Positions 45,280 to 56,286 are shown, counted from the first letter of the stretch. The stretch is DNA of 64,000 bases from a virus (IMGVR_UViG_3300032308_002775:64001-128000); one strand, 5' to 3'. Notes: generated from the sequence alone by a model not told the origin. Translations and numbers: made by a program.

Positions 45280-45723
45280 ATGAAACAGGCGCGCGAGCAC
45301 GTTAAGGCAGGCAACCGCTTTAGGGGCTCAAACGTCTTTGGTCGAAACCTGCACAACGGATCGTATTGCGTGTGGTCCTACACGGAAGCGTGGCCGCTTT
45401 ATTTGCGCTGGTGCGGCGAATGGTTTGGCAATTCCGGCTGGTATTCGCGTACAACACACCAGCACAAAGTAATACTGTGTCCGGGAGACAAGATCAGCTG
45501 GCTGCCGCGTTCGGTGATGCAGGTGTTCGTGGCGTACTGCGATTCGGCGTCTTGGCACTCAAAAGACACGCCGCTAGATTACGTGCTCGAGACCAGTGGC
45601 TTAATTCCGCCAAGGGCGGTGGTTGCGGTACCGCAGCCGAACATCCCCGAAGTCACGACGCATCTAGCTCGCGCTGAGGTTGACTGGGGCGCGGTTCGCA
45701 GGCGCCGGGTTATGCCGGTTTGA
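45280..45723 (+). CDS. Hypothetical protein with C-terminal AVRRRRVM motif
   Basis: YCVWSY...PLY...GEWFGN..WYSRTTHQH motif. Start may be GTG at 45265. Confidence 0.6.
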   Translation: MKQAREHVKAGNRFRGSNVFGRNLHNGSYCVWSYTEAWPLYLRWCGEWFGNSGWYSRTTHQHKVILCPGDKISWLPRSVMQVFVAYCDSASWHSKDTPLDYVLETSGLIPPRAVVAVPQPNIPEVTTHLARAEVDWGAVRRRRVMPV

Positions 45724-45729
45724 TATCTT

Positions 45730-47655
45730 TCAGAACCCGCTGAAGAACCGGTCGCCCAGGTCGTCGTCGGCCCAGTTGTCCGGGTTCTCGGCGGCTACAG
45801 TCTGCGCGCTGAGCCGTCCGAGCCCGGCTATCTCGGCGAAGTTTGGCAGCGACTGGTTGATGTGCCAGAGCGCGTTCGTGCCGAAGTTTACGCTTTGGGC
45901 AAAGTCGTCCGAGAGCAGCACGTTCCGGGTAATGGTGTAGATGTCGCCCGAGCTGCGGCTCTCGGTCTTGTTTTCGATGAGCGACAAAAAGTCAGCGATC
46001 AGTCCGGGATTGTCCTGCGTGATCCAGTCGTACTGGAAGAACCGGACCTGCTTGAGCTTGATTGCCTGGCAGGTGTACAAGAGCGAGCGCGTCTTATCGA
46101 GCGAGTAATGCGCGCGGTGGTTGAACGCCGTGGGTTCCTTGTAGACCATCAGGTCCTGCGCCGCCGAGCGGCACAGCCGGATGGCCATGACACGGTCGAG
46201 GTTAAACCCTGCCTGGACCATCACTGTTTCGCGCACCGTTCCGGCGCCGGTGTAGTCGTGCGTGACAAAATCGCACTTAAACAACTCCGAGTACTTCATG
46301 CACTCCACGGCCTCGGCCAGGTGCTCGCCGCCCAGCATGATTCGCTTGCCCCACAGCACGTCGATCACGCCATCGGAACGGAAACCCAAGATCGAAATTA
46401 CGGTGAAAGAAACACCCGCCTCACCGCCGCCGCCCCAGTCAATCGCCAAAATCCGGTGCTTGTACTGATCGAGGTTCTTCAAGCACTCAGGGTCCGGCTC
46501 GCGCTTGTTCTCCCACGGGAGCAGGCAGGCGTTGCGCAGGTCGGTTTCCGTCACGAGCTTCTGCCCGGCGTCAATCGATTCGCCGAGCACCTCGTTGTAG
46601 AACTGGGCCTGCGTGTAGTTAAAGCCTTCGCGTTTTTGCAGCAACGTTGCCCACTTGTCGGGATCGGCGTAGTGCAGGGGCAATAAAAGCTGCGGCACGT
46701 GATAACCCGCGAAGTTCCATCGGCGATCCGGATGCCGATGAACCCAGCGGCCGTGCCTTGGATTGATTGGCTTCTGGCACTTGGCGCAGACCGTGGCTGG
46801 CGCCTTCTCGCTGATGTCGTCCCGGTAGGGGCCGATCATCGCGTCAAGGTCGTGCTCGCGAGACGGAATGTTCCAGTGCCTGCACGAGTGGCACGGGATG
46901 AACCACTCGGCTGCCGAACTGCGCTGATATAACCCCTCTAAAGGGTTATCCAGGGTCTTCGGCGTGCCCGTGAAATGGCTCATCGCGAACCGCGAGTACG
47001 ACATTGTCTCCTGGATAATCGGAATGTGGTCGGGGTCCATGTCCTGGACCTCGTCGATGCACATCCGGTCGCTGGACACACCACGCACCCGGTCGGCGTC
47101 GAGCATCGCGTAGCTGAACAGCATCATGCTCTTGTTCTTGAACGAGCGCTGCAGCACGTTGTTGTCGGTTTCGCTGCCGCACCACTGCGCTTTGATGGGA
47201 GACTGCTCGATAAAGCTCCGAACATAGTTGTTGCTGAACCGACGTATCTGTTCAAAGAGCGGTGTTACGTACAACGTTTTGAAGAACGGGATACTATTGG
47301 CTACCACAACACCATGCGCCGCCAACGAAGTGGATTTCGAGAGCTGACGGCCCGTCTTCCAGACCTGGCTCTTAGGCATGAGCACCCTGAACAGGGGCGC
47401 AAAGGGAAAGTGATCGTGGATTGAGTACGGCTTGCCGTTCAGGTTTAACACCAGCGGCAGGATCGGCTCCAGAGACGGAAACGCGCGCTGCTCGGCCAAC
47501 GCCTTGAGCACCTGCGTTCGCTCATTTGCAGACCTCTGGTCGGTGACGTTAATACCGGCCAGTTCTTCCAGCAGCGATCGAACCCCGTTACCGGGCACTT
47601 CATGCGCTGCTAATTCCAGCGGGTTCACCGCCCGCGTATCTATCGATGGTGACAT
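45730..47655 (-). CDS. Terminase large subunit (GpA-like)
   Basis: Walker A-like KTGRQLSKST, Walker B RGVSSDRMCIDEVQD, GTP coupling motif, Zn motif CHSC...CAKC, FYNEVLG, nuclease AIDWG, DDFAQS. Confidence 0.9.
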   Translation of the reverse strand: MSPSIDTRAVNPLELAAHEVPGNGVRSLLEELAGINVTDQRSANERTQVLKALAEQRAFPSLEPILPLVLNLNGKPYSIHDHFPFAPLFRVLMPKSQVWKTGRQLSKSTSLAAHGVVVANSIPFFKTLYVTPLFEQIRRFSNNYVRSFIEQSPIKAQWCGSETDNNVLQRSFKNKSMMLFSYAMLDADRVRGVSSDRMCIDEVQDMDPDHIPIIQETMSYSRFAMSHFTGTPKTLDNPLEGLYQRSSAAEWFIPCHSCRHWNIPSREHDLDAMIGPYRDDISEKAPATVCAKCQKPINPRHGRWVHRHPDRRWNFAGYHVPQLLLPLHYADPDKWATLLQKREGFNYTQAQFYNEVLGESIDAGQKLVTETDLRNACLLPWENKREPDPECLKNLDQYKHRILAIDWGGGGEAGVSFTVISILGFRSDGVIDVLWGKRIMLGGEHLAEAVECMKYSELFKCDFVTHDYTGAGTVRETVMVQAGFNLDRVMAIRLCRSAAQDLMVYKEPTAFNHRAHYSLDKTRSLLYTCQAIKLKQVRFFQYDWITQDNPGLIADFLSLIENKTESRSSGDIYTITRNVLLSDDFAQSVNFGTNALWHINQSLPNFAEIAGLGRLSAQTVAAENPDNWADDDLGDRFFSGF

Positions 47656-47820
47656 ATGCCCAAGTATCCCGAGCATGGTCGTTACGCGCAACCAAGCGCC
47701 GAAGGAGAACTCCAGTGGCTAGAGGACGGGATTCACGTCCTGTTTGAAGTCACGTGGCAAGCAACTGCCACGCTTCTCGGCGCGCTGATTGGCGTCATCA
47801 CCGGCGAAGAGCCGTGGTGA
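47656..47820 (+). CDS. Small hypothetical protein, absent from the ORF track
   Basis: MPKYPEHGRYAQPSAEGELQWLEDGIHVLFEVTWQATATLLGALIGVITGEEPW, 54 aa, hydrophobic C-terminal half. Confidence 0.45.
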   Translation: MPKYPEHGRYAQPSAEGELQWLEDGIHVLFEVTWQATATLLGALIGVITGEEPW

Positions 47821-47839
47821 CGGCATAACGACCGTGAGG

Positions 47840-47879
47840 CCTGGACGAGTATACTCAAGGGTGACTCGTTCAGGTTTTT
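47840..47879 (+). terminator. Intrinsic terminator-like hairpin
   Basis: CCTGGACGAGT...ACTCGTTCAGG followed by TTTTT. Confidence 0.55.
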
Positions 47880-47891
47880 AGGAGCGCCGCC

Positions 47892-48116
47892 ATGGCTAAT
47901 GTGGGACACAGCGCCAAGCTGTATCAGGAACGACGTGAGCCGAACTTGCGTGTAACTTTGCGCGGCCCAGGCCCGCAAATTTACCTGCCGGACAACGCGG
48001 CCAATCACCTTAACCTGGAGGCGCCGCTTCCGTTACCGACCCTGCTTGAAGACAACTGCGCGCCCGCTGACGTGAAAACGCAGGTGTGGCCGCACGGAGA
48101 CAAGTATGCCCCGTGA
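47892..48116 (+). CDS. Hypothetical protein
   Basis: SD AGGAG, 74 aa. Confidence 0.55.
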   Translation: MANVGHSAKLYQERREPNLRVTLRGPGPQIYLPDNAANHLNLEAPLPLPTLLEDNCAPADVKTQVWPHGDKYAP

Positions 48117-48307
48117 ATGAAACCTACGATTATGAACGCTTGTTTCTGGTATTTGGAGGCGGCATCGTCGTGGTGTCCGCGATCGCTGTTCTAGGCGGTT
48201 GCCAATCTTTCGGCGATTTTGCTGCCGCGCTATTGGCGGGATACGTTCTGCTGCGCATCACCAACACAATGCGCCAAGAAGACACGCAGTACAGGAGGCG
48301 CCGATGA
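48113..48307 (+). CDS. Small membrane protein (2 TM)
   Basis: GTG start, two hydrophobic segments, basic tail. Confidence 0.55.
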   Translation: MNETYDYERLFLVFGGGIVVVSAIAVLGGCQSFGDFAAALLAGYVLLRITNTMRQEDTQYRRRR

Positions 48308-48711
48308 TTTCGGTTCTCGATTTCTTCGCTGTCGTCATGGCTACCGGCGCCGTAATCGAAGTCTGGCACAAAGGCTCAATCTTCGCCGACCTCCGCGCCA
48401 GGGCGCAGGCTATCCAAGACGTCACCGAGCCGGACACGCTCAAGGGCAAGCTGCTCGAGCTGCTGATGTGCCCTTTCTGCAAGAGCTACCACGTGCCGTT
48501 CTACCTGGGCGTCATGATCTTGCTAGGTGACTGGGCTGGCGCTACGATCGGGGCAGTCGCGCGCCTGCTCGTCTACAGCCTGGCCGCGACGCGCATTTCC
48601 AACATCGTTGACGGGCTATTGCCGCCCAATCTTCAGTACGACCCACCCATTGAAGGAACCACCAGTGGAAAATCAGACGCCGGAGATTCAGTCAGATCGG
48701 CTTCCGTTTGA
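48304..48711 (+). CDS. Membrane protein, DUF1360-like
   Basis: SD AGGAGG. SIFADLR...LLELLMCPFCKSYH plus TM segments. Confidence 0.55.
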   Translation: MISVLDFFAVVMATGAVIEVWHKGSIFADLRARAQAIQDVTEPDTLKGKLLELLMCPFCKSYHVPFYLGVMILLGDWAGATIGAVARLLVYSLAATRISNIVDGLLPPNLQYDPPIEGTTSGKSDAGDSVRSASV

Positions 48712-49048
48712 CGTTCAACTTTTCAAAGCTGCTGACGAGTTCTCCTCGGCTGTCATGAAGGCTGTGCCCGAGCTGCACGGCATCGCCATCGTTCCGATTT
48801 GGAACACGCAGCCCAAAGACACGCCCTCGGGGCTTCTGCGGCTGCGCAATCCGCAACCGCCGTTCGTTGCCAGCCTGCTATCGCTCTTGAAGCGCCTTAC
48901 GGCGTTCAGCGTCGAAGTCCACAAGGACCTCATGAACCAATTCGGCATGTACGACCAGTACGCCGCCGAGTTGTCGCGCCAGATCGCTGCAAAGCAGGAA
49001 GAACTGGCCGCTCCCGCGGCGCCGCAGAGTGAGGACGCGAATGGCTGA
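48665..49048 (+). CDS. Hypothetical protein
   Basis: GTG after AAGGA. MENQTPEIQ... Confidence 0.55.
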   Translation: MENQTPEIQSDRLPFDVQLFKAADEFSSAVMKAVPELHGIAIVPIWNTQPKDTPSGLLRLRNPQPPFVASLLSLLKRLTAFSVEVHKDLMNQFGMYDQYAAELSRQIAAKQEELAAPAAPQSEDANG

Positions 49049-49343
49049 CGACAAGACTCCGACAACCGAGATTACGATTGCCGCAGATAATGAGACGCTG
49101 CGGGATTTGCTCCAGAACCAATACGGCCGCTGCGAAGCGGGCGAAGTTCGCGCTGCGCTCGAGGGACAGTACTCGATCGTCTGGAACGAAGACGAGTTTC
49201 AGACGGCATTCGACCTTGTCGAGACAGCTCCGCCTTACGTCACTGTGGTAAACAAAGAAACCGGACAGCCCGGCACGCTGATCTACGTAGACAGCCCGCG
49301 GTTCTACTTCCTGTTCAACCCCGAGATCAACAATGGCGAATGA
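49041..49343 (+). CDS. Hypothetical protein
   Basis: SD GAGGA. APPYVTV...GTL.Y..SPRFYF motif. Confidence 0.6.
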   Translation: MADDKTPTTEITIAADNETLRDLLQNQYGRCEAGEVRAALEGQYSIVWNEDEFQTAFDLVETAPPYVTVVNKETGQPGTLIYVDSPRFYFLFNPEINNGE

Positions 49344-49797
49344 GGCCAGGCATCATTTCGACACCGGCGCAGTTCGTTCCGCAGACGTCGACGAGGAGCG
49401 TTGGGACCTGATCAGCCCGATTGGTCTGCAAGCGCTTGCCCGCACCTATGCCGAGGGCGCAAGGAAGTTTGGCGCGGCAAACTGGGAGAACGGCATGCCC
49501 GTGACGGATCTACTCAACCACGGCATTGCCCACATCTTCAAGTTCCTGGCTGGCGACCGGGCGGAAGACCATCTGGCCCACGCGGCCTGGAACATTCTGG
49601 GAGCTATCCACTCACTGGAAAAGTGGCCGGAATTAAATGAGGGCCTGCTGCGTGGGCCGGGCTGCACTTGCCCACCCGCAGCCGCCACGCCCGCGGCCAA
49701 TGGCGACAATCCAAAGATATCTTTGGGACCAGACGAGGTTCGCCAAAGGCTGGAGCAACTCGCGAAGAAGCCGCCAGCCTACGGCAGCTCGACCTGA
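49333..49797 (+). CDS. dATP/dGTP diphosphohydrolase-like (DUF5664)
   Basis: FDTGAVRS...RWDLISP...GARKFGAANWENGMP...EDHLAHAAWN. Confidence 0.85.
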   Translation: MANEARHHFDTGAVRSADVDEERWDLISPIGLQALARTYAEGARKFGAANWENGMPVTDLLNHGIAHIFKFLAGDRAEDHLAHAAWNILGAIHSLEKWPELNEGLLRGPGCTCPPAAATPAANGDNPKISLGPDEVRQRLEQLAKKPPAYGSST

Positions 49798-49833
49798 TCG
49801 CTCGCGCGGCCCGCAGCTCTGATTGCAGACCTG

Positions 49834-49903
49834 TTTTCACAGCATTAAGTGAAACATTTTCCTGGCGCCCTTGTTTCTTGCGTTTCACAGATTACTGTGG
49901 AAC
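49834..49903. promoter_or_regulatory. TTTCAC-N8-GTGAAA inverted repeats, copies 3 and 4
   Basis: TTTTCAC-AGCATTAA-GTGAAAC (49834-49855) and GTTTCAC-AGATTACT-GTGGAAC (49882-49903) in an AT-rich intergenic region. Confidence 0.65.
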
Positions 49904-49982
49904 GGAATTCGCCGCTGCGCACTAGAGTGCGCGGCTATCTCACGCAACCATGAAGGTTTTTTCTCGTAAGCGGAGTTCTTCC

Positions 49983-50363
49983 ATGCCCTTCAAGACCTAC
50001 CGGCCCAGCAAGTCCGACCAGGCACGCGCCGTCGCTGCTCAACTCAAAGCCGAAGGCAAACCCGTCCGACCGAAGACGGTGCTCGAGATTCTCGCCAAGC
50101 GCGGCGTCGTGATGGATCCCGGCCAATGCTCAAAGCTCACCGGCGAGTTCTGTAAGCGCCGCAAGCGCACCTGGACGCGCCGCGCCTCGAAGGTCCGGAC
50201 AGTGTCCAGCAACAACGGAGCGGCCAACGTCTGCGCCCCTGTTAAGACCTACAAGCACCTAGAGCTTGCCGCCGCGTTCGCCCAAAGTTGCGGCAGCGTT
50301 CACAAAGCGCAGCAGGCGCTAGCCGATCTGGCCACGATCGTCGAACCGTTTGTCAAGTCCTGA
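49983..50363 (+). CDS. Basic DNA-binding protein, paralog A
   Basis: SKSDQARAV...VRPKTVLEILAKRGVVM and LELAAAFAQSCGSVHKAQQAL. SD GGAG. Confidence 0.55.
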   Translation: MPFKTYRPSKSDQARAVAAQLKAEGKPVRPKTVLEILAKRGVVMDPGQCSKLTGEFCKRRKRTWTRRASKVRTVSSNNGAANVCAPVKTYKHLELAAAFAQSCGSVHKAQQALADLATIVEPFVKS

Positions 50364-50367
50364 TCTG

Positions 50368-50389
50368 ATTTCACACATCACCGTAAAAT
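50368..50389. promoter_or_regulatory. TTTCAC-N8-GTGAAA-like repeat, copy 5
   Basis: ATTTCAC-ACATCACC-GTAAAAT, just 5' of SD GAGGA. Confidence 0.45.
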
Positions 50390-50407
50390 ATCCCCAGAGG
50401 ACCAGCT

Positions 50408-51142
50408 ATGTCTGACACCGAAGTCGACCCCATCTGGGACACCACCGAGCCGTTTGCCGAGCAGGCGCGCCCGGAACCAAAGTTGTCCAGGAAGAAAAAG
50501 TCCGGCACGGAGGCCGAAATCGTTCTGCCCGAAACCGACGAGCTGCCAGAGCCTGTAGAACCAGGCGAGCTAATCGACGGATCGGAGGACGACATTTCCG
50601 CGCTTGAGGAACAGGACCCCACTGTTCCAATCGAGGTCGCTGTTGACCTCGAAGACCGTGCCCGTGGCAACGCCGAAAAGGCGGCTGCCCGAAAGAGGAG
50701 TGAACCCATGTCCGAGAAGACCAAGACCAAGGCCGAATGGATCCGCGACGAGATCGCCCAGCGCAAGGCCGACGGCGTCGAAACCATCCGCCCCCGCGAC
50801 ATCATCGCGGCGCTGGCGGAGAAGGGCGTCAAGGTCACGGCGCCCCAGGTCAGCGTGACCCTGCGCGATTTCGACAAGCCGAAGGCGGCCAAGCCCGCGA
50901 AGACCATCAAGGCGGGCAAGCTGGTTGCGGCAACCAAGGCTGCTGAGAAGGCCAAGTCCCGGGAGCCCAAGCGGGCCACGGCACGGCTCAGCGCCGTTTC
51001 GGCAAAGCAGGCGCCCGCGGCCAACAAGCCGTCCTACGAGGCGCTGGAGGCCACGGCTGAGTTCGTGAAGACCAACGGCGGCCTGGAGACGGCGCGCCAG
51101 CTGCTCGATGCCTACGCGAAGTTGTTCAACCCGGCGGGCTGA
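50408..51142 (+). CDS. Basic DNA-binding / nucleoid-associated-like protein, paralog B
   Basis: TKAEWIRDEI...IRPRDIIAALAEKGVKVTAPQVS, K/A-rich linker, LEATAEFVKTNGGLETARQLL. Acidic N-terminal extension, internal SD plus ATG at 50708. Confidence 0.6.
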   Translation: MSDTEVDPIWDTTEPFAEQARPEPKLSRKKKSGTEAEIVLPETDELPEPVEPGELIDGSEDDISALEEQDPTVPIEVAVDLEDRARGNAEKAAARKRSEPMSEKTKTKAEWIRDEIAQRKADGVETIRPRDIIAALAEKGVKVTAPQVSVTLRDFDKPKAAKPAKTIKAGKLVAATKAAEKAKSREPKRATARLSAVSAKQAPAANKPSYEALEATAEFVKTNGGLETARQLLDAYAKLFNPAG

Positions 51143-51286
51143 GAGTCCTTCCTGTCGCCTGCGCGGCCGGTGTCCGGCGCGTGTCACCACACGTCTGCCC
51201 CACCCGGCCCGGCTCCGCAGGTCCTCAAATTCGGGCGCGCTGCCCAACCGCGCGGCTTATCTGGCCGCGCCGCCCACGGAGGTTCT

Positions 51287-51568
51287 ATGCCTACAGCCTG
51301 CCCCCTGCGCCCTCGTCGCGCCTATCAGGCCATGACGATGCCCGCGGGGACCATCAAACGTATTCATGTGAACCAGCACATTATCAAGGCCAACGTCTCC
51401 AACCAGACCGACGACCAAGCGGTCACCGTCCAGTGGCGCGGCAAGAGCTACATCGGCCGCGACGTCCAGATCAAGGGCGCCAGCACCGTGATGCAGCGCA
51501 TGGCCAAACCGCTTTCCTGCGGCGCCCGCATCTGGATCGAGACCCGCGCCGAAGTGGAAATCCTATGA
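51287..51568 (+). CDS. Conserved phage hypothetical protein
   Basis: KRIHVNQHIIKAN...KPLSCGARIWIET. SD GGAGG. Confidence 0.7.
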   Translation: MPTACPLRPRRAYQAMTMPAGTIKRIHVNQHIIKANVSNQTDDQAVTVQWRGKSYIGRDVQIKGASTVMQRMAKPLSCGARIWIETRAEVEIL

Positions 51569-51879
51569 GTCGCTATCACGAGACCCAGCGCGACGAGGAC
51601 CTCGGCAGCCTGACTAACGCGCTGCAGTACCTCGACCAGATTCGCGCTACCTTTGGCGACGTGCTCGCCATTCCCGAAGTGATCACGATCCAGGACGTCA
51701 TGGCCATCGCCCTGGACACGACCAAGGGACCCCAGCTCATCGGCGACGTCTGCAGCCGCGACGAGATCGTCCATATCCTCCGGTCCTTCGCCGACAACCC
51801 GTGCGGCGACCCGGCCCTGATTGCGCAGTACGCGCTCAACGACTATCGCGAAACCCAAAAACTCACCAACAAGGAGTAA
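51565..51879 (+). CDS. Hypothetical protein
   Basis: ATGA overlap. MSRYHETQ... Confidence 0.6.
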   Translation: MSRYHETQRDEDLGSLTNALQYLDQIRATFGDVLAIPEVITIQDVMAIALDTTKGPQLIGDVCSRDEIVHILRSFADNPCGDPALIAQYALNDYRETQKLTNKE

Positions 51880-51882
51880 CGC

Positions 51883-52245
51883 ATGAGCCACATCGTGCAG
51901 ATTAAGACGGAAGTGAAGGATGAAATGGCGGTCCGCGCCGCCTGCCTGCGCCTCAAGTGGGAGCAGCCCGTGTTTGGCAAGCACCGCGTATTCAGCGTCG
52001 ACCGCGAAGGCCTCGGGGTGACGATTCCCGGCTGGCACTTCCCGGTCGTCGTCAACATGTCGACCGGCGCGCTCGACTACGACAACTACAACGGCCACTG
52101 GGGCGAGCAGAAGCTGCTCGATCAGTTTCTCCAGGCCTATACGATCGAGAAGGCCAAGCTCGAGGCGCAGAAGATGGGTCACTCGGTGTATGAAGAGCCG
52201 ATGGCCGATGGTTCGATCAAGCTCACCGTCACCGTGGAGGCCTGA
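51883..52245 (+). CDS. DUF1257 / Ycf35-like protein
   Basis: MSHIVQIKTEVKD...YDNYNGHWG...FLQAY...GHSVYEEPMADGSIKLTV. Confidence 0.8.
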   Translation: MSHIVQIKTEVKDEMAVRAACLRLKWEQPVFGKHRVFSVDREGLGVTIPGWHFPVVVNMSTGALDYDNYNGHWGEQKLLDQFLQAYTIEKAKLEAQKMGHSVYEEPMADGSIKLTVTVEA

Positions 52246-52250
52246 CCAAC

Positions 52251-52442
52251 ATGACCAAGATCATCGAAATCATTGTTTCCCCCAAGGGCGAAACCAAGCT
52301 CGAGACCAAGGGCTTTGCGGGCAACAGCTGCCAGGAAGCCACGCGAGCCCTCGAGGCTGCGCTGGGCGCCAAGACCGACGAATCCCTGACCGGTGAGTAT
52401 TACACCGAGGTCAACACCAACCAGCTCGACGTCCAGAACTAA
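52251..52442 (+). CDS. DUF2997-like protein
   Basis: IEIIVSPKGETKLETKGFAGNSCQEATRALEAALG...LTGEYY. Confidence 0.8.
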   Translation: MTKIIEIIVSPKGETKLETKGFAGNSCQEATRALEAALGAKTDESLTGEYYTEVNTNQLDVQN

Positions 52443-52451
52443 GGAGACCCG

Positions 52452-53945
52452 ATGAATCTTTCCCAGCAGATCAAGGAACTCGTGTGCGCGGGCTTCAGCG
52501 GCATCTGGGTCGACACTCAGGAGTCGGACGACGCCGTGGCCACCGTCAAGAAGCTCTGCGAGGAGCGGGACTGGGGCTTTGAGGTCTGGGACCTCGACCG
52601 CCAGCTCTGCGTCCACAACGCCACGCCCGCTCCCGGCCCTGTCCAGGCGCTCCGCTGGCTCGACACGCCGGACGCGCGGGCCAAGAGCACGCAGCTCCTG
52701 CTGCTCAAGAACTTCCACAAGTATCTGCCCAACCCCGAGGTGATGCAGGTCCTCCAAAACCGCGTTATTACCGGCAAGGCGATCGGCCAGCACGTGATCG
52801 TGATGAGCCCCGTGCTCCAGCTCCAGCCGGAGATCGAGAAGCTTTTCACGATCGTTCACCACGAGCTGCCGGACCGCGCGCAGCTCACGACGATTGCCAA
52901 CGAACTGTTCACCGGCGAGGGCAACACGTTCGAAAAGCCCGCCGACGAGGTGATCGCTAGCGTGATCGACGCCGCCAGCGGGATGACCCGTCTGGAGGCC
53001 GAGAACGCGTTTGCGCTCTCGCTGGTCCGGCACAACACCCTGAGCCCGGACGTGATCTGGAATCTCAAAGCGCAAACCCTGGAGAAGGCTGGCACCCTGG
53101 CCCTCTACCGGGGCGACGCCAGCTTCGACGGCCTGGGCGGCCTCGATAACCTGAAGCAGTTTTGCCTGCGCGCCATGAAGCGCCAGGGCGAGGCTGACCC
53201 CGAGCGCCGTCCTCGCGGCGTGCTCCTGCTCTCGCCTCCGGGCTGCGGCAAGTCGCAGTTCGCCAAGGCGCTGGGCAACGAGGTCGGGCGACCCACAGTC
53301 GTCCTCGACTTCGGCGCGCTGATGGGCAAGTTTGTCGGCGAGTCGGAGGGCAACATCCGCCGGGCGCTCGCCCTGGTGGACGCGATGGCGCCCTGCATCC
53401 TGTTTGCCGACGAGATCGAGAAGGCGCTCTCCGGCGTGGGCAGCTCGGGTCAGACCGACTCGGGCGTCACGGCGCGCCTCTTCGGCACGTTCCTCACGTG
53501 GCTCAACGACCACAAGTCTGACGTGTTCTTCATCGGCACCTGCAATGACGCCAGCAAGCTCCCGCCCGAGTTCACTCGTGCGGAGCGCTTCGACGGCGTG
53601 TTCTTTGTTGACCTGCCGACGGCCGACGCCCGAAACTACATCTGGGACCTGTATCTCAAGAAGTTTGGCCTGGACAAGAACCAGGCCCGCCCGGACGACA
53701 CGAACTGGACCGGCGCCGAGATCAAGAGCTGCTGCCGCTTGGCGGCGTTGCTCGACGTCTCGCTCATCGAGGCCGCGTTCAACGTGGTGCCGGTGGCTGT
53801 GACCAACGCCGAGGCGATCACCAACCTGCGCACGTGGGCTGACGGCCGTTGCCTGTCCGCCGACAACAAGGGTTATTTCAAGAAGGCCGCCGTGAAGGCC
53901 AACGAGCCTGGCACCCGCCGTCGGGTTGCGCCCAGTTCTAACTGA
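52452..53945 (+). CDS. AAA+ ATPase, Ycf46-like
   Basis: Degenerate N-terminal AAA domain (LKNFHKYL). Walker A SPPGCGKS, Walker B ILFADEIEK, SRH LPPEFTRAERFD. Confidence 0.9.
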   Translation: MNLSQQIKELVCAGFSGIWVDTQESDDAVATVKKLCEERDWGFEVWDLDRQLCVHNATPAPGPVQALRWLDTPDARAKSTQLLLLKNFHKYLPNPEVMQVLQNRVITGKAIGQHVIVMSPVLQLQPEIEKLFTIVHHELPDRAQLTTIANELFTGEGNTFEKPADEVIASVIDAASGMTRLEAENAFALSLVRHNTLSPDVIWNLKAQTLEKAGTLALYRGDASFDGLGGLDNLKQFCLRAMKRQGEADPERRPRGVLLLSPPGCGKSQFAKALGNEVGRPTVVLDFGALMGKFVGESEGNIRRALALVDAMAPCILFADEIEKALSGVGSSGQTDSGVTARLFGTFLTWLNDHKSDVFFIGTCNDASKLPPEFTRAERFDGVFFVDLPTADARNYIWDLYLKKFGLDKNQARPDDTNWTGAEIKSCCRLAALLDVSLIEAAFNVVPVAVTNAEAITNLRTWADGRCLSADNKGYFKKAAVKANEPGTRRRVAPSSN

Positions 53946-53969
53946 TAGATATCTATTGAGTTCCCCCTG

Positions 53970-53995
53970 GGCGCGACTGTGTAGTCTCGCCTTTT
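53970..53995 (+). terminator. GTGT-loop hairpin with T-tract
   Basis: GGCGCGACT-GTGT-AGTCTCGCC-TTTT. Confidence 0.55.
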
Positions 53996-54008
53996 CTCAG
54001 GAGACCCC

Positions 54009-54971
54009 ATGAGCACAACTCTCGACGAAGCCCCGCCAGAAATTCCGGCGGGCGACGGCGCGCCAGTCGCCGAGGCCGCGCAGGAAATGCGCGCTTCGAT
54101 GGGCGCCGTCGAGCTGCGTTTCACCTGGCTCGGAACCCAGCGCAAGCTGGCCGACAGCCAGACCCGGCAGGCGGCCGACACCTTCCACGCCGATGCCAAG
54201 AGCGTCAGGGCCAGCAAGGTCCTCATTGACGCCAAGCACCCGGCGTATCGTGCGGCCACCGTCATTCGCAGTCAGGCCCGGGGTTTTCTCCGCGGTATCA
54301 GTCTGCCTTATCCGCAGGAAGGCATCCGCCTGATCAAGTACGACGACATCTCGCGCTTCGAGGCGCAGATGCTGGAGTTTCGCGAACGGCTCGACAATGC
54401 CGTGGCGACGCTCCAGGAACACTACGACGCGATCAAGGCCGACGCCCGCGAGCGGCTGGGCGACCTCTACAACGCGGCCGACTACCCGGCCAGCTTGGAG
54501 GGCGTGTTCAGTCTCACCTGGGATTATCCCAGCATCGAGCCGCCGGAGTACCTGCTCAACTACAACCCGGGGCTGTACCGGCAGCAGCAGGCGCGCGTTC
54601 AGGAGCGTTTCGAGCAGGCCGTGGTCCTGGCCGAAAACGCCTTTGGCGAGCGGCTCCAGGAACTGATCGACCACCTGCTCGAGCGGCTGCGGGGCGTGGA
54701 GACGGGCGAAGCCAAGCGGTTCAGTAACTCGACCGTGGAAAACTTCGCCGAGTTTGCCGCCGAGTTCCGCCGGATGAACATCCGCGGAAACACCCAGCTG
54801 GAAAGCCTGATCAACCAGGCGCAGTCGATTGTGTCCGGCGTCGACTCCAAAGCCATCAAGGCCAACGGAGACCTTCGTCAGACGTTGTCGACTCAAATGG
54901 GTGAAGTGCGCGACGCGCTTGATACGATCCTGGCCAACCAGCCTCGGCGCCGCGTCATGCGGATGGACTGA
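54009..54971 (+). CDS. DUF3150-like helical protein
   Basis: ASKVLID...LPYPQEGIRLI...RLGDLYNAADYP...FAAEFRRMN. SD AGGAG. Confidence 0.55.
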   Translation: MSTTLDEAPPEIPAGDGAPVAEAAQEMRASMGAVELRFTWLGTQRKLADSQTRQAADTFHADAKSVRASKVLIDAKHPAYRAATVIRSQARGFLRGISLPYPQEGIRLIKYDDISRFEAQMLEFRERLDNAVATLQEHYDAIKADARERLGDLYNAADYPASLEGVFSLTWDYPSIEPPEYLLNYNPGLYRQQQARVQERFEQAVVLAENAFGERLQELIDHLLERLRGVETGEAKRFSNSTVENFAEFAAEFRRMNIRGNTQLESLINQAQSIVSGVDSKAIKANGDLRQTLSTQMGEVRDALDTILANQPRRRVMRMD

Positions 54972-56017
54972 TGGATCCGGCCGCCAAGATTCTCGACCCG
55001 ATGATGCCCGACCTTGCGAATCCTCCCCAGGTTCGCAAGCGTCGGGCACCGAAACACGATTTCAAGGACGGCAAGGGCCGTGTATTTGCGCATCGTCACG
55101 ACAACGGCGGCGGTTGGGTTGCCGACACGGCCTGGGTAGCGCCGACAGCGAAGGTCACACGCAACGCCCAGGTTTTCGACTACGCCCGCGTTCACGACAA
55201 CTGCGAGATTACCGGCCAAGCCCGCGTCTTCAACCGCGCGCGGCTCTTCGATAGCGTTGTACTCTCGCAGCGCGCTGCCGTACATGGCCTCGCCATGGTG
55301 CGCAACAGCGCCACAGTCAAAGACAACTGCCAGATCTTCGGCAGTGCGCATGTGTGCGGTAACACCCACCTAAACAACAACGTGCACATCTATGACCACG
55401 CCGTAGTTATCAATTCCAATCTTTGCGGTCCGCGCCGCCAAGACTTTTTTGGCGTTGTTCGTGGCGCCGCGCGCGTGCTTAATTCGCGGTTTCACAACTG
55501 GTTCTCTGTGAGCGATGCAAGTTTGCTTGAAAACGCGCACATCCAGAACGTTGTAACGACATACTCAGCGCGTGTTGTCAATTCGTCCGTGTTCACCAAC
55601 ATTTCGTGGACTTACCACTCGTGGCTCAACGGACAGATCAAAGACCTACCAGAGAATCACGCGCCATACAACGCAGATTCAGTGATTCAGGTGGTTGGTA
55701 CCGTTATCAACTCCGCCATCAACACCACGCCTTGGCGAGTCCATGAGCGCGCGCAGTTTGTAAATTGCACACTTATGTGCGCAATGACCGGCCTGCCAAC
55801 CGACAACACAGCGTTGCACGACGTGTTAGACCCGTTTGACCGCGCTATGGTGGGCGCGGAAGCGCGGCAGCTAGAAGCTATTACCAACGCGGTAAACCGA
55901 ATCATGAATCCGGCAGCCGTTGCGGCAACAGCGCCAATCCCGGCCATCGCCGCGCGTGGAGAAGCCAACTTCGAAGCTGTGCGCCAGCGCCGCATCATGC
56001 GGATGGAGGAAACGTGA
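54971..56017 (+). CDS. Hexapeptide-repeat (left-handed beta-helix) protein
   Basis: GGWVADTAWVAPTAKVTRNAQVFDYARVHDNCEITGQARVFNRARLFD repeats. Confidence 0.75.
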   Translation: MDPAAKILDPMMPDLANPPQVRKRRAPKHDFKDGKGRVFAHRHDNGGGWVADTAWVAPTAKVTRNAQVFDYARVHDNCEITGQARVFNRARLFDSVVLSQRAAVHGLAMVRNSATVKDNCQIFGSAHVCGNTHLNNNVHIYDHAVVINSNLCGPRRQDFFGVVRGAARVLNSRFHNWFSVSDASLLENAHIQNVVTTYSARVVNSSVFTNISWTYHSWLNGQIKDLPENHAPYNADSVIQVVGTVINSAINTTPWRVHERAQFVNCTLMCAMTGLPTDNTALHDVLDPFDRAMVGAEARQLEAITNAVNRIMNPAAVAATAPIPAIAARGEANFEAVRQRRIMRMEET

Positions 56018-56286
56018 ACCTGTACATCCGACCCGACGGCACACTCCAGGCGATCTACGGCGAGGACGTCGATCTGGGCGCGCTTGGCGCCGTAAACGTC
56101 CGCCGCGCGTCTCATGTCGAGCCCGCGGCCAACGGACCGGGCTGGACTGCCGACCTTACCCCAGTCGGCGGTCCGGTCCTGGGGCCGTTCCAGAAACGCA
56201 GCGAGGCCCTGACGGCCGAGATCGCGTGGCTGGACACACGCCTGGCCAACGGACCAGTCACGGTCAGCGGAGGCGGCGGTGAGTAG
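56014..56286 (+). CDS. Conserved small protein ('RRASHVEP' family)
   Basis: IRPDGTLQAIYGE...RRASHVEP...WTADLTPVGGPVLGPF..RSEAL.AE..WL. SD GGAGG. Confidence 0.7.
   Translation: MNLYIRPDGTLQAIYGEDVDLGALGAVNVRRASHVEPAANGPGWTADLTPVGGPVLGPFQKRSEALTAEIAWLDTRLANGPVTVSGGGGE

Follow-up and report, generated by a model that had tools for sequence, protein, structure and literature searches.

An arginine-rich C-terminal tail common to a p97-like ATPase, its helical partner and unrelated proteins of a jumbo-phage clade

Four proteins with unrelated bodies end in the same short arginine-rich peptide in the window, a 64,000-nt stretch representing bases 64,001-128,000 of a 153,669-base virus contig (IMGVR_UViG_3300032308_002775). 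Two of them, a Ycf46-like AAA ATPase that resembles p97 and a DUF3150-like helical protein, are subunits of a five-gene module; the other two are a beta-helix protein, whose gene is inserted in the module, and p147, which is encoded further upstream. The tail is a real, conserved and selected peptide common to these bodies. It is ancestral to the module, which is commonest on mobile elements of Planctomycetota, and is thus no phage invention. The comparisons described here establish that the motif exists and is conserved, that it is linked to the module, that it is gained and lost as a modular unit, and that selection acts on it at the protein level; its most probable role is that of a docking peptide. 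New are the family-wide invariance of the motif, the co-variation of its flavour between subunits, a catalogue of grafted families with their gains and losses, and a codon-level test. The contig is ~75% complete (CheckV), has a GC content of ~60%, and was grouped with uncultured jumbo phages, close relatives being ~200 kb in size. For every gene studied here, the nearest cellular homolog is from Planctomycetota. The features concerned, numbered from the first base of the window, are the following.

45280..45723, + strand: p147, 147 residues, of no known family; open reading frame encoding a body, then a Pro-rich linker that varies, then a conserved tag block at the C-terminus
45652..45720, + strand: tag block of p147, its last 23 residues, with the core RRRRVM
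51883..52245, + strand: DUF1257 (Ycf35-like) module subunit, without a tail, candidate receptor; assigned from BLAST orthologs
52251..52442, + strand: DUF2997 module subunit, without a tail, candidate receptor (Pfam PF11211, E = 9.8e-17)
52452..53945, + strand: Ycf46-like classic-clade AAA ATPase, modelled with a degenerate D1-like domain and an active D2
53913..53942, + strand: AAA tail TRRRVAPSSN, the Arg-rich motif followed by a conserved terminal PS.N
54009..54971, + strand: DUF3150-like helical module subunit
54936..54968, + strand: DUF3150-like tail NQPRRRVMRMD (P312 and R314 invariant in 61 sequences)
54971..56017, + strand: beta-helix (hexapeptide/bactofilin-like) protein, a tagged add-on between the DUF3150-like gene and s90
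55952..56014, + strand: tag block of the beta-helix protein, with the core QRRIMRM
56014..56286, + strand: s90, small RASHVEP module subunit, without a tail, candidate receptor

The initial annotation had claimed a C-terminal tag on four unrelated proteins, and all four ends read as it stated: p147 terminates in ...AVRRRRVMPV, the AAA ATPase in ...TRRRVAPSSN (RRRVA being related to RR[VI]M), the DUF3150-like protein in ...PRRRVMRMD and the beta-helix protein in ...AVRQRRIMRMEET. When all 153,669 bases of the contig were scanned in six frames, RR[VI]M was found within five residues of the end of an open reading frame only in the p147, DUF3150-like and beta-helix genes. The strict motif occurs five times among the 144 called proteins, and three of these occurrences fall in the last ten residues, where 0.01 would be expected from composition; none of 20,000 shuffles reached three or more C-terminal tails, so that the tails stand far above chance frequency. 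A looser Arg-rich pattern applied to the last 12 residues selects exactly the p147, AAA, DUF3150-like and beta-helix proteins, and all four of their genes are confined to 10.7 kb of the 153.7-kb contig. As a separate observation, an AT-rich GATATC palindrome directly follows the stop codons of p147 (45720-45728) and of the AAA gene (53946-53959).

Conservation in relatives was followed in 46 viral loci, which were retrieved with a 10-sequence alignment, and also in 80 loci of Planctomycetota and on one plasmid of Nitrospirota (Manganitrophus, CP114559). The tails are kept in these relatives while the linkers ahead of them diverge. In homologs of p147 (48-69% identity), no block is better conserved than the last ~23 residues, which follow a linker that varies in both length and sequence. 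Similarly, the beta-helix protein carries the motif in 22 of 23 distinct ortholog tails, and in the 84-85% identical phages of loci L001 and L002 the tails are unchanged and the linker ahead of the beta-helix tail has been rewritten. Beta-helix relatives from phages where no module was found have different C-termini.

Repeated arginine codons in GC-rich DNA, or the local duplication of a gene end, could in principle yield such a likeness by chance or artefact. The genome is GC-rich, and the DNA of the DUF3150-like and beta-helix tails is identical at 22 of 27 bases in this phage and at 21 of 27 in L002, so that the DNA match behind the initial annotation's caveat, that a duplication might account for this pair, is real in these two genomes. 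It does not extend to other lineages, in which identical tail residues use different codons (the same codon is used at 0 of 5 positions in L025, 0 of 4 in L008 and 0 of 3 in L001) and the tails are conserved at 28-58% protein identity. Furthermore, the p147 tail has no DNA in common with the other tails. Because the same residues are written with different codons in other lineages, the DUF3150-like and beta-helix tails stay alike at the protein level, and selection acts on the peptide. Chance or a DNA artefact, already refuted by the shuffle test and the codon comparison, retains next to no probability. Gene conversion was considered separately as a cause of the DUF3150-like/beta-helix likeness and is ruled out for most lineages by the differing codons.

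The module consists of the AAA, DUF1257, DUF2997, DUF3150-like and small RASHVEP genes. The same set is present in viral, Planctomycetota and plasmid loci, with a gene order that varies among the viral and Planctomycetota loci; in this phage all five genes are co-directional on the + strand (51883-56286) and the beta-helix gene is inserted among them. No publication on the five-gene module was found in a literature search. A link to ubiquitin-like tagging is not seen in the contig at its 75% completeness, ThiF and Prok-JAB having no match there. DUF2997 and ycf35 are neighbours in cyanobacteria (PMC4284462). The cyanobacterial and plastid proteins Ycf46 (AAA), Ycf35 (DUF1257) and DUF2997 belong to the same families as three of the module subunits, but they have no defined function and are not known to accompany DUF3150-like or RASHVEP proteins.

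Wherever the module occurs, its AAA and DUF3150-like subunits end in a tail with the core [P/G]-x-R-x-hydrophobic, after which a second hydrophobic residue or an Arg usually comes; in this phage the core takes the form RRR[VI]M. An exhaustive profile-free search returned 5,227 relatives of the DUF3150-like protein, and most of the best 150 of these (32-50% identity) have P-[RK]-R-x-[IVLM] at the C-terminus or close to it; what comes after it is basic, acidic or a variable stretch of greater length. Across the 61-sequence alignment of this family, P312 and R314 never change. The AAA ATPase has more than 5,700 relatives, and all 116 full-length homologs compared (55-98% identity) carry an Arg-rich-hydrophobic motif in their last 16 residues, 101 of the 116 ending in Asn. 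The tail is absent from distant DUF3150 proteins that are paired with a MoxR-type ATPase and a VWA protein, as in Planktothrix phage Pag-Yong1 and Burkholderia plasmids. Because these proteins lack it, it is the AAA/DUF1257/DUF2997/RASHVEP set that the tail accompanies, rather than the DUF3150 fold in itself. The phage-encoded addressing system proposed in the initial annotation thus keeps its tie to the DUF1257/DUF2997/AAA gene set; its origin in the phage does not hold, and the proposed export of tagged proteins is unsupported.

The Manganitrophus plasmid carries the AAA, DUF1257, DUF2997, DUF3150 and s90 genes together, and 1.5 kb downstream of this module encodes an 847-residue protein whose C-terminus is a near-copy of the DUF3150 tail. 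What follows the module on this plasmid (L006 10407-11213 and 14204-15868) is a Fic-family gene, the tagged 847-residue protein and a weakly HATPase_c-like protein, a neighbourhood unlike that of the phages. Single Planctomycetota genomes hold four or more DUF3150-like copies with the module, namely CP043547 (L067, L072, L073, L095) and JAXGXG01 (L055, L063, L100, L123), which suggests a multi-copy integrating element. A copy is also present in the cultured Singulisphaera acidiphila DSM 18658, at NC_019892 2,442,593-2,463,534. In the phage clade, two genes upstream of the module (49950-50363 and 50408-51142) are kept next to it; their products are Lys/Ala-rich, apparently share a short helical motif, and look DNA-binding.

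Beyond the two constant subunits, the phage clade of this genome has grafted the tail, behind variable linkers, onto at least five further unrelated families. When all open reading frames of the viral loci were clustered, 217 families were found in at least four loci. Among these, a motif frequency of 50% or more across distinct tails is reached by the AAA, DUF3150-like and beta-helix proteins and by families of 89, ~180, 173 and 177 residues. Three families of short open reading frames also pass this threshold and are of doubtful status: two lie on the opposite strand and are probably spurious, and the third, of 148 residues, has Lys/Arg-rich ends. The 89-residue family is represented by tagged proteins of 85-94 residues encoded between the AAA and DUF3150-like genes (L001 9704-9985, L008 9681-9938, L014 9678-9938, L033 9708-9992); these combine a tail-fibre-like N-terminus, weakly matching phrog_19966, with the same Arg-rich tail. 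Their gene is missing in this phage, in which a 63-base gap occupies 53946-54008. The ~180-residue family, with coiled-coil-like N-termini, carries the motif in 10 of 12 distinct tails; the tag is present in most lineages and absent in L001, L033 and this genome, the untagged homolog of which lies just past the end of the window (contig 128895-129323).

Family searches assigned no function to these add-on proteins, and they returned the following likenesses. The beta-helix protein matches phrog_5070 and phrog_7964 (E~1e-21), scores 25.3 bits with the Pfam Hexapep model, below the cut-off of 27, and in tblastn is 30-36% identical to phage proteins whose annotations are polymer-forming cytoskeletal protein or acyltransferase. 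Residues 1-113 of p147 resemble phage proteins of 95-118 residues that have no tail extension, which is no more than a lead, and an atlas look-up of p147 returned no functional name.

The flavour of the tail shifts in step in the two constant subunits. In most loci the AAA and DUF3150-like tails are both basic; in L039, L043, L044, L046 and L047 both read R-x-hydrophobic-x-hydrophobic and continue with Asp/Glu; and in L035 both are R-[RK]-I-G. Judged from these sequences, such co-variation is what a binding site shared by the two tails would predict.

The proteins themselves give some indication of the kind of machine to which the tail belongs. Pfam recognises one AAA domain in the 497-residue ATPase (residues 257-387, E=5e-26), the best sequence matches of which in the PDB are Cdc48/p97 (phmmer E=5e-43). 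Its AlphaFold2 model (predicted local distance difference test score, pLDDT, 83.6) aligns in Foldseek over ~500 columns (E~1e-20) with the D1-D2 portions of p97, Cdc48 and N-terminally deleted Rix7; residues 1-215 are modelled as alternating strands and helices with a helical lid that align with D1 of the D1-D2 chains. The ATPase is thus a classic-clade tandem AAA protein, and its first domain is degenerate, since Pfam detects a single AAA domain at 257-387. The DUF3150-like protein (pLDDT 89.1) is modelled as a mixed N-terminal part followed by long helices that end in a four-helix bundle. Proteins that carry the annotation DUF3150 in GenBank share 24-27% identity with it; Pfam gives no match at E<=0.01 for it or for nine homologs, and its model has no Foldseek match at E<=0.001 and no clear structural relative, the best VIA-align hits (Z 10) being generic or designed helical bundles that cover residues 186-317 only. 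The tails are disordered in both monomer models (in the ATPase the last 17 residues, 481-497), as expected of a peptide that binds in trans. Of the untailed subunits, DUF1257 has BLAST orthologs in nearly all loci, and its homolog on plasmid CP114559 is annotated as such. The s90 protein contains an invariant RASHVEP stretch and is kept across viral, bacterial and plasmid loci; the start of its gene runs into the stop of the preceding, tagged beta-helix gene, and an atlas look-up returned no functional name for it.

The AAA gene is uninterrupted in this phage and is split in several relatives. In L014 (7870-8667), L016, L030, L038 and L045 the break falls right after Walker B, exon 1 ending ...VLFVD and exon 2 beginning EIEKG..., and the insertion of ~0.8-0.9 kb encodes an HNH endonuclease, which gives it the look of an intron carrying a homing endonuclease. 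The gene is also split in some Planctomycetota copies (L052, L058, L069, L129).

Short peptides that bring unrelated proteins to a common AAA machine have several precedents. The HbYX C-terminal tails of proteasomal ATPases and activators (PAN, the Rpt subunits, archaeal Cdc48, Blm10/PA200) dock into repeated pockets of a common platform, and there, as here, one short C-terminal peptide is shared by an AAA ring and by alternative partners unrelated to it. The phage tail differs in having no penultimate Tyr, and no proteasome-like ring was noted in the module; no tail ends in hydrophobic-Tyr-any, the AAA tails ending in PS.N or in acidic residues. ESCRT-III proteins share C-terminal MIT-interacting motifs (MIMs) that bind the MIT domain of the AAA disassemblase Vps4, another case of a C-terminal motif on many polymer-forming proteins, both paralogous and unrelated, that recruits a classic-clade AAA protein. 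In contrast to Vps4, there is no MIT domain here, and the DUF3150-like model matched generic helical bundles only. Cofactors of p97 share an Arg-rich linear VCP-binding motif (VBM; consensus EhRRRRLxhh) and a VCP-interacting motif (VIM), of which the VBM is helical and binds a cleft in the p97 N-domain (PMC5389986). Like the phage tail, the VBM is a short Arg-rich motif with a hydrophobic residue that occurs on unrelated proteins; it recruits them to a classic-clade tandem AAA protein, and the cofactors compete for one site. The phage tail differs in lying at or near the C-terminus, in being present on the ATPase itself, and in a R-x-hydrophobic-x-hydrophobic spacing that looks strand-like. 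The RRR-plus-hydrophobic core is similar to the VBM consensus, but the leading E-h and the trailing hh are not conserved in the phage tails.

On balance, the tail is probably a short linear docking motif by which the AAA and DUF3150-like subunits bind a common site, likely within the module, and the grafting of which recruits the add-on proteins of the phages. This interpretation is favoured because the motif combines an invariant Arg with alternate hydrophobic residues, sits on a disordered end behind linkers, and is shared by the motor, its constant partner and the add-ons. We infer from this that the tail is a binding peptide, that its receptor is a protein of the module, and what the outcome of recruitment would be. 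The tail, ancestral on the p97-like ATPase and the DUF3150-like protein, would serve as a docking peptide for both, and the one common site that they probably bind would most likely be on DUF1257, DUF2997, the RASHVEP protein or the ATPase ring. The jumbo-phage clade would then have placed the tail behind disordered Pro/Ala-rich linkers onto unrelated proteins, here the beta-helix protein and p147, and in relatives the tail-fibre-like 89-residue, the ~180-residue coiled-coil and the 173-residue proteins, which may thereby be brought to that site, either as accessory partners or as clients. More tentatively, the tail could be the portable address label of a ubiquitin-independent tag-and-remodel pathway of mobile DNA, in which ~10-20 residues suffice to deliver any protein to a p97-like motor through a module receptor, label and receptor co-evolve in flavour, and jumbo phages tag their own polymer-forming and fibre-like proteins; this is possible, though we think it does not reach an even chance.

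Several observations weigh against a docking motif. No binding partner has been found for the tail; a complex prediction limited to DUF1257, DUF2997 and s90 with DUF3150-like residues 276-320 scored 0.00, which speaks neither for nor against binding. Because residues 1-215 of the ATPase align with D1, there is no room for a p97-type double-psi-barrel N domain, and the model shows none, so that the site used by the VBM has no counterpart. The flavour co-variation rests perhaps on two or three evolutionary switches, and within lineages the matching of DUF3150-like and beta-helix tails is weakly above that of shuffled pairings (679 of 20,000 shuffles equal or exceed the observed value, p ~0.03, the pairs being non-independent). 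Bacterial copies of the module have few or no extra tagged genes, and because of this the recruitment of clients may be peculiar to the phage clade studied here.

A further point on that side is that the tail could bind a target outside the module, such as a conserved host protein (chaperone, protease or clamp) or a nucleic acid, in which case it would mark a shared location or fate and not docking to the AAA machine. The Arg-rich composition, the lack of a known receptor and the persistence of the motif across hosts of two phyla all accord with this. We consider it unlikely, as the acidic variants keep the single Arg and the hydrophobic positions amid Asp/Glu, a poor fit for plain nucleic-acid binding, and the motif tracks the module rather than the DUF3150 fold and co-varies in flavour between two module subunits. 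A role closer to the ATPase would be that of a degron-like substrate tag, by which the p97-like motor engages disordered C-termini and unfolds, extracts or disassembles the tagged proteins as clients instead of partners. The ATPase does belong to an unfoldase clade, the tails are disordered and lie behind flexible linkers, and some tagged proteins look polymer-forming (relatives of the beta-helix protein are so annotated, and others are coiled-coil-like); we regard this as a minority possibility. However, the ATPase and its constant DUF3150-like partner carry the motif in every genome, and no protease partner was noted among the annotated genes beside the module. With the motor itself bearing the motif, a simple degron is a poorer fit than assembly or cofactor docking. 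A signal for export or virion packaging, by which tagged proteins would leave the cell or enter the capsid, is suggested by the position of the p147 gene next to that of the large terminase and by the tail-fibre-like 89-residue protein of relatives. It is highly improbable, given that non-viral Planctomycetota elements and a plasmid carry the same motif, that the module has no membrane or secretion component, and that a cytosolic ATPase is tagged as well.

The module to which the tail belongs is widespread, with more than 5,000 DUF3150-like and more than 5,700 AAA relatives and multiple copies in Planctomycetota genomes, and among its genes are relatives of ycf46 and ycf35, which have long gone unexplained in plastids and cyanobacteria. 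Short, invariant and transferable, the tail offers a direct experimental handle on how this machine is built and what it targets, and its grafting in the jumbo-phage clade is a natural experiment that names candidate clients.

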